DNA of 64,000 bases from a virus (IMGVR_UViG_3300013767_000193:50-64049); one strand, 5' to 3'; shown: positions 52,190 through 58,100, counted from the first letter of the stretch. Notes: generated by a model not told the origin, from the sequence alone. Numbers and translations are program-made.

Positions 52190-55100
52190 ATGGCTGACGG
52201 TTTCGTGAAGGACGCCGACCAACCCACGGTCACGGTGAGCGCCCCCCAAAAACGGGATACAGAAGGCTTCGTCAAAGACGACGGCTTCGTCAGGGATGGC
52301 GCCGCCCCGACGAGTCCGCCACCAGGCCAATCGCCATACGAGAACCTGAAAGTCGGCGACGAGACCGCGACGTGGGGTAAGTTCGTCCCCGACGCGGTGA
52401 TCTCGGGCAAGCAGGGATTGAACTCCTTCATGGATTCGATGCACTCGCTCGCCAACGCGGCCACGGGACACGTCCTCGACAACCGTGAGCAGCGCGTGGC
52501 CGCTCAGGATGAGCTGGTGAAGAAGTATGGCCTGACGGAGAAGACCGCCCAGCTCGCCGAGATCAACGGTGTCAGCGACTACCAATTCAAGAACCGACTG
52601 CTCGAGGCGCAGAAGTCCGCCAGGGGGCAGGCGATGGATGAGGCCGACAAGCAAGCCTCGTTCGGCCAGGCCACGAGCAACGCCATCTCCAATCCCGGCC
52701 ATGCGGCCGACATGATCGCCACCAAGGCCGGCGAGATGGGCCCGATGATGGGCATGGGGGGCCTGACCGCCAAGGGGGCTAGTGCACTGCGCAGCGTGGC
52801 GGCCGACTTCGGCCTGCAGGCGTTCGGTGACACGGAGCAGGCGCTGCACGACAAAGGCGCGGACGCCGCGCATTCCTATGGGGGTGGTGCTGTCGCCGGC
52901 GCGGTCACGGGCGCGGCCACGGCCATCGGTGGCAAATACATCGAACCCGCCGCGGAGTGGGCCGCCTCGAAGATCCCGTTCGTCGGGGACTTCCTGCGCC
53001 GGCGCGTGGCGGGCGCAATCAACATGGGTGCCCAGGGCTCGGCCATGGCCGGGGGCACGAAGGTCGGCGAGAACGTCGGCGAGGGCAAGCCCGCCGGTGA
53101 GGGCGTGGGGGACGCCGTGGCCCAATCCCTCCCGAGCAGTCTGCTGACTGGTGCCGCCTTGCCGTTCCATGGCCGCGGCGCCCTGGCGGCGAAGCCCGCA
53201 GACCAGCCGGCCGCAGCCCCTCGCCCCGCCACCCAACCCCCCGGACAACCGCCCGCCCCGGGCACCCTCTCCCCGGAGAACTTGGTGCGCTACGGCGCGT
53301 CGGTGGCGCATACCGAGAGCGGCGGCAAATACGACACCACCAACCAACTTGGCTACCTGGGCAAGTATCAGCTCGGCGCCGTGGCCCTGACCGACCTGGG
53401 CTACGTGAAGCCGGGCACCACCCAGGAGCAGCTGGCTGACCCCGCGCACTGGACGGGCAAGGACGGCGTCGCCAACCCGCAGGACTTCCTGACGAACCAC
53501 ACCGTCCAGGAGCAGGCGTTCGCGCAGTACACGCAGAACAACCTGGCCGCCCTGGCCAAGCTGGGCCTGATCAAGCCGGGCATGTCCCAGGCCGAGATCG
53601 CCGGCATGCTCAAGGGCGCTCACCTGGGCGGCCCCGGTGGCGTGGCGGCTGCGGTGAACGGGCAGAACCGGGCCGACGCCAACGGCACCACGGTGGCCGA
53701 CTACATGAAGCAGGGCGCCGACGCCCTCGGGGGCCAGGCCCAGCCGGAGAACACGGCAGGCATCATGCCGGAGCACCCCTCCGACGTCGCCGCGCAGATC
53801 GCCGCGATCCGGGAGCCGACCAGCGAGAAGGACACCGCGCTCATCTCGGCCAACACCGCGCTGCCGCAGCTGCCGCCGGATCTGCTGGCGATTAAGCTGC
53901 ACGACGGCGCCACGCTTGTCACCTCGAACCCGGAGAAGGCCAAGGTCGCCCAGGACCACAACGGGCAGCTCACCACCGATCAGTTGGGCGAGCTGCTGGG
54001 CTACACGACCCGCAAGGCCGACAGCGACGGCACGGTGGTCCAGGCCCTGGACCGCAACGGCAACGTGGTGCACGAAGAGGCCACGAACGCCCAGGGCGTC
54101 GCCGACGCCCACGCCAACGCTGACCGCATGGCACCGGCCGGCGGCTTCGTGCGCGTGACCACCGCGGACAACGCCATCGCCGAACGTGGCGCGATGGCTA
54201 AGGGGGACAAGAAGGTCACCCAGCAGCGCCGCGACGAGGCCATCACGCAGGAGCTGCAGGCCAAGTACGGTCACCCGCAGCCCATCGCGGGCCCCGATGG
54301 CAAGCCGCTCGAAGGCAAGTCCACCTGGAATGGCAAGACGTTCAACACCGCCGAGGAACGGGCTCGCGCGGTGAGCTCGATGATCAAGAAGGAGCTGCAG
54401 AAGACGCCAGCGCAGCGCACGGCCGAGCTGCTGGCAGCCCACGCGTTCAACGAGGTCCACGGCCGCATGCCGACCGAGGCTGAATTGAAGAAACTGGCGG
54501 GCTACGGCCTGACCGGTATTTCGTCCGAGGCCAGCGCCGCGGCCAATATCCACCACGCCATCGGTGAGGTGGAGGCGAGCTATACCCCCGACGCCAGCGG
54601 CAAGTCCAAGGCAAAGGGTGACATCAGCCTGAACGAGGACCTGCCGGTCCTGAAATCCCTCTACGAGAAGCTCACAGGACAACACTATGGCGAAGGTATC
54701 AATTCCGGCACCAGCACCTCGGGTGTCGACACCGAAAGTGGCAAACATGCAAGCGCCCCGGCCCACGCAGCCGATCAAGGCAGCCGCCCCGCTGAAGGCG
54801 CCCCCGCCACCGAAGGTGCAGCCCCTGCCGAAGCAGGCCAGGGCCAAGGCGGTGCCGCAGTTCCGGGATCCGAACCGGGACATGTACGCGATGGATCTGC
54901 CGAAGGTGCAGCCGCCGAAGCCGGCGCCAAGCGGGAAGTTCGGGGGGTAAGTGACACGCCAGCTACGGAGTTGTCGCCGCAGGCGCAGCGCGTGGTTGGC
55001 ACCATCAAGCTGAACAAGGAGAAGCGCAATGGACAAGCTGCACAACCATCACGACAAGTGCAAGAACCTGCCGGGGACGTGCCCGGACAGCGCGGGGTGG

Positions 55101-58100
55101 GACCCGATGCAGTTCGACCAGCAGGTGAGCCACGACGACCGGCTGGCGAGCAAGGAGGAGCCGCACGAGACGGCAGCGTACGAACGGAAGGAACAGGAGA
55201 TAGCCGCCCGGCTGGGGATGCCGTTGTACGTGGTAGCGGAAATGAACCTGGCGCACCGGCCGAACCGGAAGTAAAGCCCCACGCCCGGGAGGACGAGGAC
55301 GAGGCCAAGCACCGTCGCGTCGCGGATATTGTTGGGAGCCTCTTCCCAGACACGGACAAGGGCCGCCGCAACCGCGACATCATCCTCGCGCACTACGCCG
55401 GCGACACCGCCACGGAGATCGCCAAGCGGCTCGGCCTCGACCGTTCGACGGTCAGCAAGCTGGTGAGCGATAAGGCGATCCAGGCCATGATGCCCCGCCT
55501 ACTGGAGGAACTGGAGCGCCGGGGCATTTCCCGCCAGGACTTCATGGAGGACCTGGCCGCGCACGCCGCGGACGCCCCTGACACCGGCGGCGTAGAAGAG
55601 GGCGCTGAGGACTCCACCCCACGCGTCTCCGACGAGCTGGGTGGTGGCGAAGACGGCAAGGAACGCCAGTCGATGGGCACTATCCAGTCCATCGGCGGCT
55701 CGCAATCTGAGTGGGCCGATACCGACAGCGCCAGCGAGCGATGGATCAAGGCGAAGGAGGCCGGCGACGAGGCTGGCATGCGCGCGGCCGAAGAGGAGCT
55801 CAAGAAGGTCCCGGCCGACGAGATGGGCTTCACCACCTCAGAAGAGCGAGCCCGGGACCGCTGGGACCAGCTAGCCGACGAGCACAACGCCCCGCTGCAG
55901 TTCGACGACCTGCCGGAGGAGGCCCGCAAGGAGTTCAGCGACTACGTGCGCAATGGGCACGGCAACCTCAATGACATGAACAAGATCATTGAGGACCATG
56001 ACGCTGGCAAGTACGACACCGACGAGGAAGAAGACAGCAGCTACGCCTCGCGCAGCAAGAAGCTCGAGGCCCTGGAGGAGCACTACCAGGGCGTGGCGGA
56101 TATGCACACCTGGCTGGCGCAGCACGACCTCGCGCACATCGAGGGCTCGGTGGACCACTGGCACGTGGTGTCGGCTGACGAGCTGGACGGGGCCCATGCG
56201 GACTTCTACACCGACGAGCGCGGCGAGTCCCACGTACGCCTCAGCCAGGAGCTGCTGGATTCGGGCGACACGGAGTTCATCAAGCAGAACATGAACCACG
56301 AGCTTGGCCATGGTGTTGACATGGCTGACCGTGGGGGGGTCTACTCGATCCAGCCGGAAATGCGTGTCGCCATCGACCGCAAGACCAACGAGGTCGTCCC
56401 GGTGGGCGCCGTGGCCAAAGAACTCCACGCGCTGTGGCAGGATGATACACTCGGCGAACTTGGCTACCCGTTCGACCGTGAGCGGTTTGGCGGGCTCACC
56501 GACAAGGCGGTGCAGAAGGAGATGTTCGCGCAGGTCTGGTCGATGTTCAACCAGAGCACTGGCTGGCGTTCGCACCTCCAACGCGTGGCACCGAAGACCT
56601 ACGAATTTTTCAAGGATGTCGAGACCGATGTCAGACAGCAACCGGCTTCAGCGTTTTCGGATCGCTCGCGGATTGGCGCAGCAGAGCGAGGCCAAGCCTT
56701 TCAGGAGCGTAAGTCCCGCCGGAATACCCAAGTTCCGGTCGATGCCGGATCCGGGCGTGCCAGCCCCTGGGGCAACCCCGAGCGCACCGCCCGCGTCCTC
56801 GCCGCCGCCAACGAGCCCGACCGCCGGGCCGCAACCTACGCCGGACGCCTCGCCGACACCGCCGACCACGACCAGCTCGCCGCCGCCAAAGCCCGTGTAA
56901 GAATGGGGGATGACCCGGAGTCCGTGCGCAAAGACACCGGGTGGTTCCAGAGCAGCGTGGATGGGGAGTGGCGCCACGAGATCGACGACTCCGGCGCCCG
57001 GCTCAAGCGCCCGTGGGACGAGGTCGAAAGGTCGCCGGTGATCGGTCAGCCCGTCGAGCACCAGATCGGGGACGTTCTGGATCACCCGGAGCTGCTCAAG
57101 GCGTACCCGGAACTGCGTGATGTCAAGATCACCAAACGCTCGCCGTTCCTGGATTTCAACCAGGCGATCCAGGGGTGGTTCGACCCAAGGACCAAGCAGC
57201 TCAACATCACCCCCTACGCGCAGGACCCGCTGTCGACGATGCTGCACGAGCTGCAGCACTGGGTGCAGCACAAGGAGGGGTTCGACCAGGGTGGCAACAC
57301 GGCGTCGACGAACCTGGCCAACCCGGAGGTGCTGGGCAAGCTGGCCGCTCGCGTCAAGGACAACCTCACCGGGCTGAAGGACCTGAAAACCCCCCTGGCG
57401 AACGCCCACCGCAAGATCCAGGAGGAACAGCTCGGCGCGCTGCGCGCCATCGTCGACCGCCTGCCGAAGCTCCAGGAGCAGCAAAAGCAGCAGGAGCAGA
57501 TTAGGCAGCAGATGGCGGACCTGGAGAAGGAAAAGGCCGCGCTCAAGCAGAAATACGACGACCAACACGCCACCGCGATGGAAGCGTGGAAGCAGACGCA
57601 GCCCGAGGCCAAACAGCGCCGGGATGCCGCCCGGGATCGCCAGTGGGACAACCGCCTCTCTGCCGAGGAGCGTGCCGCGGCAGCAGAGGAATACAAGGTC
57701 GCCCAGGCGGCGTACCTGAACTCCATCACCAAGACGCCTGGCCGGGATTGGCAGAGCGAGATGGCGGAGCGCAAGGCCCTCGATGACCGGATCAAGGAAC
57801 TGAAGCGGGACGACGAGGGCATCGAGAAGGCCAAGTTCGATGGCGTTCCGAACATCGACAAGCTCAAGCACCAGGCGTACGAGCTGATCTCCGGCGAGCG
57901 CGAGGCGCGCGATGTGCAGAAGCGCATGGACCTGACCCCGGCGCAGCGCAAGTCCATCAAGCCCTACAGCCATGAGGGGATCAAGGACGAGCACACGATC
58001 CGCCCGCCGAAGGAGTCCTACGCCAGCCAGAGCCAGAAGCTCTCCAGCGTCGAGGAGCGCGAGAAGGCCCGCGAGAGCACCACGGCCAAGGTGATCCGCA

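Follow-up and report, generated by a model that had tools for sequence, protein, structure and literature searches.

Two small genes apparently nested out of frame in the linker of a giant prophage polyvalent-protein gene

The DNA analyzed here (the window) is a stretch of 64,000 nucleotides (nt), IMGVR_UViG_3300013767_000193:50-64049, from a provirus recorded in IMG/VR (68,989 bp, 63.5% G+C). The late region of the provirus carries genes for terminase, portal, a major head protein, tail fibres and internal virion proteins. The final late gene ahead of the integrase is a giant open reading frame (ORF), and the genes directly upstream of it encode internal virion and structural proteins. Inside this giant gene, on the same strand and in its +1 frame, lie two small ORFs, A and B, of 87 and 81 amino acids (aa). 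A first-pass annotation, made from the sequence alone, had proposed that the disordered linker of a large polyvalent protein is used here as a hidden two-gene operon. Comparison of the reading frames in the window and in related prophages indicates that A and B are apparently a real, conserved gene-within-gene arrangement that seems not to have been described so far.

Both nested ORFs begin where they had been placed, each with a Shine-Dalgarno (SD) sequence 7 nt ahead of its ATG, AGGA for A and AAGGAG for B (Table 1). Two +1-frame stops (54948 and 55011) separate them, with 15 nt from the second to the ATG of B. An A-rich tract, ATCAAACTnAA (55004-55015), stands just ahead of the SD of B and is almost invariant among relatives despite their G+C-rich genomes. 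The tract may enhance translation by binding ribosomal protein S1; alternatively, it could reflect the outer residues Ile/Leu-Lys-Leu. A recount agreed with the first-pass annotation that 74 of 81 nested codons in B and 71 of 87 in A end in G or C. For the outer frame over B it gave 51 of 81 codons ending in A or T in place of the 52 of 82 claimed, with the six CGA codons present. The outer frame over A and B encodes a stop-free, low-complexity linker; that it is rich in Gly, Ala, Glu, Pro and Arg was also noted at first pass.

Codon composition changes phase over this segment. Along the giant gene, G+C at outer third codon positions (GC3) is 0.83-0.98 except at about 54680-55370, where G+C instead peaks at +1-frame third positions (0.75-0.92) and outer GC3 drops to 0.40-0.58. 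The switch starts at the ATG of A, not earlier, and is the only strong one in 974 sliding windows over the 17 long genes of the window. Read in its own frame, B has a G+C profile over codon positions 1, 2 and 3 (GC1/2/3) of 0.67/0.37/0.91, resembling true genes (typically ~0.62/0.43/0.87), versus ~0.91/0.67/0.37 for the same stretch in the outer frame. Scored against the phage's own codon usage, nested B has a mean log-likelihood per codon of +0.64 and the outer frame one of -0.71; a true gene scores ~+0.85 and a typical off-frame ~-0.76. By composition, the outer frame over B looks like an off-frame. That its third positions are not free is evident from its many CGA, GGA, GAA and CAA codons.

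Relatives came from protein databases only, plus one viral-contig scan with ORF B. They include homologous giant genes and, separately, small proteins called on short contigs, and their DNA was compared. About ten lineages were used: the window (W), L002, L003 (which also takes in L004, L005, L011 and L012), L010, L007, L008, L013, L014/L015, L016 and L017. The carriers are divergent prophage lineages of Burkholderiales type, L008 being from Paraburkholderia unamae. A search of a phage collection found no DNA match to the window. Pattern scans of viral contigs with a giant-protein segment or its N-terminal domain returned nothing, as did both genome-contig scans and the metagenome-contig scan for relatives. 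An ORF B profile run against 1.84 billion representative proteins hit two clusters only, P0006 and P0007, and both lie over an open outer frame, in L008 inside the giant gene and in L007 on a 984-nt contig that is open end to end. Neither the protein-database nor the profile searches found free-standing relatives of A or B.

The nested arrangement is kept throughout. ORF B lies in the +1 frame under a stop-free outer frame in 10 of 10 lineages, the outer frame being uninterrupted from end to end of the short contigs, or over the whole giant gene where this is complete. ORF A sits at the same place in nine lineages and is absent from L008, so A and B are not an obligate pair. No lineage that carries A (9/9) or B (10/10) has lost a start or its SD or gained an internal stop in the nested frame. 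ORF A starts with ATG in eight of its nine lineages and with GTG in L013, preceded at 4-7 nt in all nine by an SD-like motif (GGAG, GGTGGAG, GGAAGG or GGGAGAG). ORF B has an AAGGAG-, AAAGGAG- or GGAG-type SD 5-8 nt before ATG or GTG in every lineage, and the A-rich tract together with the SD is kept in 9/10. Over the start of A the outer residue varies (Tyr vs Asn) between lineages while the ATG stays. The stops of the nested ORFs keep their position and vary in stop-codon identity.

Table 1. Features of the giant gene and its nested frames, in window coordinates unless a relative is named
Feature	Position	Strand	Remarks
Outer giant gene	52190..60829	+	2879 codons; from ORF listing and translation
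SD of ORF A (AGGA)	54676..54679	+	
Putative dual-coded segment	54680..55300	+	outer frame encodes the linker, ~aa 831-1037
Nested ORF A	54687..54950	+	+1 frame of the giant gene; GC1/2/3 0.69/0.55/0.82
Conserved A-rich tract ATCAAGCTGAAC, then SD of ORF B (AAGGAG, 55016-55021)	55004..55021	+	
Nested ORF B	55029..55274	+	+1 frame of the giant gene
Helix-turn-helix (HTH) domain of outer protein	55376..55465	+	Pfam HTH_23, aa 1063-1092; immediately 3' of the dual-coded segment
Candidate ORF C	56628..56900	+	90 aa, +1 frame; conserved N-terminal motif, Pro/Ser/Thr-rich tail
ORF C homologue in L002	12172-12483		
ORF C homologue in L003	7020-7220		
ORF C homologue in L008	9591-9824		
ORF C homologue in L010	9815-10012		

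Amino acid conservation follows the nested frame and not the outer one. Between lineages ORF B is 51-86% identical, and 29 columns are invariant over the ten lineages, including aromatic and hydrophobic positions (W-D, Q-F-D-Q-Q-V-S, E-T-A-A, P-L). Per 40-residue block, identity in the giant protein is mostly 20-50%, and no part of its gene is more conserved in nucleotides than the ORF B segment. Among giant homologues without the A/B cassette, L006 shares the upstream domain of the gene, and L009 lacks the cassette as well. The modules on either side of the cassette are variable, and the order of polyvalent domains downstream of B differs between lineages.

We compared three frames by naive Nei-Gojobori estimates of the ratio of nonsynonymous to synonymous change (dN/dS), pairwise between lineages. 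For ORF B the median dN/dS is 0.74 nested, 1.30 outer and 0.92 in the third frame; for ORF A the medians are 0.65, 1.25 and 0.97. The nested value is the lower of nested and outer in 42/45 pairs for B and 35/36 for A. The outer amino acid sequence behaves like a non-coding frame, and the nested sequence is constrained. Counting substitutions by codon position is not enough to tell the frames apart: in ORF B all three positions differ about equally, because its variable termini change at all positions and its core at none.

Several observations weigh against a coding role for A and B. Suppression of synonymous change leaves the nested dN/dS only moderately below 1, and for B it lies below that of the third frame in just 29/45 pairs. 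Low synonymous variation in the core of B is partly expected from two-fold codons and a strong GC3 bias. Pooled statistics overstate independence, since the lineages share ancestry. Neither product has a family, fold or solved-structure match, and the only sequencing run that contains the window DNA is subsurface metagenome DNA, not RNA. In addition, a linker of G-starting codons (Gly, Ala, Glu, Asp) could passively give a G-rich third position and few stops in the +1 frame, so that only the outer frame would be functional and A and B would be meaningless. G does exceed C at nested third positions. Similar phase switches occur in the acidic low-complexity linkers of L006 and L009, with no demonstrable nested gene, and a phase switch alone is therefore not diagnostic. 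Stop-free runs of 230-600 nt in the +1 frame are also not rare in these giant genes. A singly coded linker, however, should keep the genomic GC3 of ~0.87, whereas outer GC3 collapses here to 0.37-0.55, with rare codons, and the nested frame has a normal GC1/2/3 profile. SD and start stay at homologous positions in all lineages with A or B despite changing outer residues, the conserved aromatic and hydrophobic motifs are confined to the nested frame, and nested dN/dS is the lower in nearly every pair. We consider it improbable that A and B are such a by-product.

ORF A might instead be read as the tail of a frameshifted isoform: ribosomes would shift to +1 just before 54687 and stop at 54948, giving the N-terminal protein with an A-encoded end. 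SD-stimulated +1 shifting is established for prfB, and the SD-like element just upstream could act here in the same way; the +1 frame is also open for 33-100 nt ahead of the ATG in all lineages. By eye, however, 54654-54686 holds no slippery or stop shift motif, although no formal frameshift-site search was made. A +1-frame stop always lies shortly upstream (33-100 nt), the start of A is conserved in all nine carriers, and the composition switch begins at the ATG. ORF B is independent of A, being cut off from it by the +1 stops and occurring without it in L008. We give a frameshift product little chance.

Evidence on the outer frame comes from synonymous resampling of the A and B codons with the codon usage of each genome's flanks. 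This predicts about three outer-frame stops, and the probability of none is 0.016-0.05 per lineage carrying both ORFs (0.22 for L008, with B only). None is observed over the nested segment in any of the 10 lineages. At nested third positions T makes up 2.5% versus 8.3% in flanks (Fisher p = 2.6e-10), and G/(G+C) is 0.70 versus 0.48 (p = 1.6e-27). The outer frame of the window has one bulky hydrophobic residue where resampling predicts 8.4, and 103 G-starting codons where it predicts 79.5; other lineages are shifted similarly. The outer frame is stop-free, poor in bulky hydrophobics and rich in Gly, Ala, Glu and Asp because synonymous sites of the nested genes are biased away from T and towards G. 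Where conserved ORF B residues have four-fold codons, the third base differs in 18-37% of cases, versus 42-56% in the flank. No ATG, GTG or TTG occurs in the outer frame between the stop of B and 55463, and the HTH domain is therefore made only by ribosomes that read at least part of the overlap. Given nested conservation and the tuning of synonymous sites to the outer frame, both frames appear to be under selection.

These data also bear on the possibility that the locus consists of several independent genes in succession (an N-terminal module, then A, then B, then a C-terminal module). The scarcity of T at nested third positions would then keep the outer frame open by accident, and the downstream module would be translated from a non-canonical or reinitiation start. 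When each ORF's own synonymous codons are permuted, the probability of no outer stop is indeed 0.11-0.49. The public calls split the L008 locus into ORF B, as an 88-aa hypothetical protein, and a 1426-aa gene starting at a GTG directly behind it, and the varying domain order downstream of B would suit independent modules. However, the upstream module has no stop codon in 10/10 lineages, so its ribosomes must read on. The GTG of L008 is GTT in the window, where no canonical start lies between the stop of B and the HTH domain. The stops expected under genome codon usage, the T depletion, the G preference and the avoidance of hydrophobic residues all indicate that the outer frame is selected. We judge it improbable that these are separate genes.

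The remaining candidates are weaker still. A signal from an antisense gene sharing third positions (two antisense ORFs, 114 and 202 aa long and high in GC3, run across this part of the gene), or from a conserved RNA or DNA element (the core of ORF B is almost invariant at the nucleotide level), is very improbable: the antisense frames carry 1-3 stops in 4/6 lineages, including three inside the ORF B span of L008, and have the inverted GC1/GC2 profile typical of shadow ORFs, on which grounds an antisense gene was rejected, while RNAalifold around the start of B gives -2.7 kcal/mol with no covarying pair, a simple scan finds no sigma-70-type promoter, and terminator-like sites are as many as in shuffles. 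A sequencing frameshift is excluded by ten independent assemblies. A mobile insertion was dropped as well, as the nested segment occurs once in the provirus, with no second copy.

Features of a same-strand embedded gene pair seen at this locus are inner ORFs inside a longer ORF, conserved starts of their own, constraint of moderate size on the inner frame and a maintained outer frame. We think it likely that 54680-55300 is dual-coding, the outer frame providing a linker and A and B being translated from independent internal SD/ATG starts on the same mRNA; composition, conservation, start signals and constraint in both frames are demonstrated, and translation of the nested ORFs is what we infer.

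The two predicted products differ in character. That of A is basic (isoelectric point (pI) ~11), 24% Pro, free of Cys and of hydrophobic segments, and probably disordered; PLK and a C-terminal P-x-F/Y-x-D/N-P-x-R-x-M-Y-A-x-x-L-P are conserved, and the PKVQP repeat pointed out at first pass is present twice. The product of B is acidic (pI ~6), with predicted C-terminal helices at residues 45-62 and 66-71. Its AlphaFold2 model has a low-confidence mean predicted local distance difference test (pLDDT) of 64, rising to ~86 over residues 50-70. HNHH and two Cys occur in the window copy, as first reported. They are not conserved in relatives, so no metal site is implied for B, and a metal-binding reading was ruled out.

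Searches identified no homologous family. Neither A nor B matches a family in Pfam or PHROGs, and a PDB sequence search and an ESM Atlas search gave no match for either. A Pfam scan of five ORF B members to E = 10 returned nothing but one chance Peptidase_M56 match; since TnpV (PF14198) was not hit, B is not TnpV. ORF A had no Pfam match, TnpV included. Foldseek against PDB and an Atlas shape search returned noise only. The C-terminus of B resembles a helix-turn-helix by eye ('EIAxRLG'), and no search supported a helix-turn-helix. A complex prediction for A with B scored 0.00, which carries no weight either way on binding. An o-spanin identity was also rejected: A lacks Cys and a hydrophobic N-terminus, B lacks a conserved Cys and a signal sequence, and the lysis cassette is situated elsewhere in related prophages.

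The outer protein combines several unrelated domains, including an LPD-type domain, in one polypeptide. This is the organization of polyvalent proteins, giant polypeptides of phages and conjugative elements that join several unrelated effector or binding domains, LPD-type ones among them (Iyer et al., 2017, PMC5512222). It matches Pfam LPD23 (63.9 bits, cut-off 27), a PHROG tail-lysozyme family (lysozyme-like) at aa 370-519 and, at its C-terminus, a PHROG family annotated DarB-like; its translation contains two HExxH motifs. The HTH_23 match scores 23.0 bits, slightly below the 24.6 cut-off, and the domain is kept in L002, L007 and L008. One homologue, P0005, is named PLxRFG domain-containing protein and carries LPD1 and ART-PolyVal. 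An ejection-type virion protein is a reasonable inference from the position of the gene after internal-virion genes and from the lysozyme-like domain. At aa 577-656 (window 53900-54150) lies a conserved domain of ~110 aa with the motif D-G-T-V-V-Q-A-L-D-x-x-G-N-V-V-H-E-E-A-T-N and without a Pfam match. It is common to P0002, P0003 and L008, occurs in giant proteins both with and without the nested cassette, and is missing from the L003/L010 lineage.

A third nested gene, ORF C, perhaps lies further downstream, at the boundary after the first zincin domain of the giant protein, on weaker evidence than A and B. Homologues of 65-103 aa in the +1 frame start with ATG in 5/5 lineages (window, L002, L003, L008, L010) and share the N-terminal motif S-N-x-Q-x-R-F-x-L/I/V-A-R-x-L/M-A-Q, and a GAGGTG-type SD precedes the start in 4/5. 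The codon signal is weaker, with a nested GC3 of 0.71-0.76, and conservation extends to the outer frame there. L006 has, at 4450-4830, a stretch of low outer GC3 (0.42-0.6) with ~176 stop-free +1 codons whose translation is Arg/Lys-rich, the outer frame being an acidic low-complexity linker; this could be another overprinted gene or mere linker composition.

The P. unamae carrier (L008; contig JAYMRU010000007.1, assembly GCA_038900535.1) is apparently a strain that was sequenced, not a metagenome, and carries B and C. Its outer ORF spans 1701 codons stop to stop (7481-12586) and begins only ~500 nt upstream of B. An antisense gene publicly called upstream of B in L008 is probably spurious. In the window the integrase (60795-61868, - strand) is convergent to the giant gene and overlaps its 3' end by 35 nt. 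It is followed by a host-type dihydrouridine synthase (Dus) gene, probably of host origin (60795-63015 region); the same gene follows the integrase in L008 (12555-14693), so the two prophages seem to share an integration site adjoining dus. Past ~61900 the provirus record probably runs into host DNA. No tRNA was found in 60000-64000 of the window.

The arrangement could work as follows. Ribosomes on the giant late gene would read 54680-55300 as a disordered Gly/Ala/Glu/Pro/Arg linker between an N-terminal module that includes the muramidase and the modules with HTH, zincin, LPD23 and PLxRFG domains. On the same late mRNA, internal initiation at the two SD/ATG sites would yield A and B, so that ~600 nt would be used in two frames. 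Sequence-specific information would reside in the nested frame, and the outer frame would merely be kept open, hydrophilic and flexible through nested third codon positions. Composition further suggests that the nested genes came first and the linker was overprinted on them later. This leaves the nested genes of the first-pass proposal in place but reverses its pre-existing linker, and it agrees with a stepwise, modular growth of polyvalent proteins and with the variable modules flanking the cassette. Most likely the giant gene arose or grew by read-through of pre-existing small genes in another frame.

The function of A and B is the weakest step. Our best guess, from their presumed co-expression and from the DarB-like match of the giant protein, is that they are accessory factors made alongside the packaged protein, acting for example in its folding, head incorporation or control and resembling the small DarB partners of phage P1. 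More tentatively, giant polyvalent genes in general might grow by reading through small genes, their linkers overprinting functional genes whose products (here those of A, B and probably C) would be partners controlling how the giant protein folds and is packaged, its activity after injection, or immunity to it. Nested genes between domains would in that case be a general, overlooked coding layer in polyvalent and effector genes across phyla, systematically missed by annotation pipelines. The case suggests that polyvalent proteins can gain modules by fusion across small genes.

Bacteria and double-stranded DNA phages offer few long, fully nested overlapping genes on one strand that are well backed by comparison, and such genes stay invisible because gene callers forbid them. 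NCBI and metagenome annotation of this locus shows either the giant ORF alone or, in P. unamae, ORF B with the giant gene broken in two. Full-text literature searches found no description of nested genes in polyvalent linkers, and the founding polyvalent-protein paper (PMC5512222) does not mention overlapping or nested genes. The present case is also unusual in that selection is visible on both frames, with nested synonymous sites apparently tuned to a stop-free, hydrophilic outer linker.

Several known systems offer comparisons. In the Dar system of phage P1, the giant DarB is packaged with small accessory proteins (Hdf, DarA, DdrA, DdrB, Ulx), and partners are needed for incorporation. Like the window protein, DarB is a giant multi-domain protein; it is capsid-packaged and injected, and the DarB-like PHROG match at the C-terminus of the window protein is the sole basis of the analogy. 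The P1 accessory genes are separate and non-overlapping, no sequence similarity of A or B to any Dar protein was found, and the parallel is functional speculation only. Out-of-frame, same-strand genes with internal starts are known from comS inside srfAB of Bacillus subtilis and from genes B, E and K of phiX174, and as here they lie in much larger coding sequences. Unlike A and B, however, comS (46 codons) lies within an enzyme-coding module rather than a linker, and phiX174 is a tiny single-stranded DNA genome under size pressure, whereas a 69-kb double-stranded DNA prophage has no obvious need for compression.

A further parallel to A and B is lambda Rz/Rz1, in which the small Rz1 gene has its own start inside a larger late gene and encodes a proline-rich product. 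As in lambda, whole small genes share strand and mRNA with the larger late phage gene that contains them and lie in its +1 frame, and the predicted product of A is likewise proline-rich. Embedded, overlapped and separated spanin architectures have been reviewed (PMC6139136). Unlike Rz1, A and B have no signal peptide, lipobox or conserved Cys and so are not o-spanins. The outer gene here encodes a 2879-aa putative virion protein with two or possibly three genes nested in it, and what is overlapped in the outer frame is no functional domain but a low-complexity linker.

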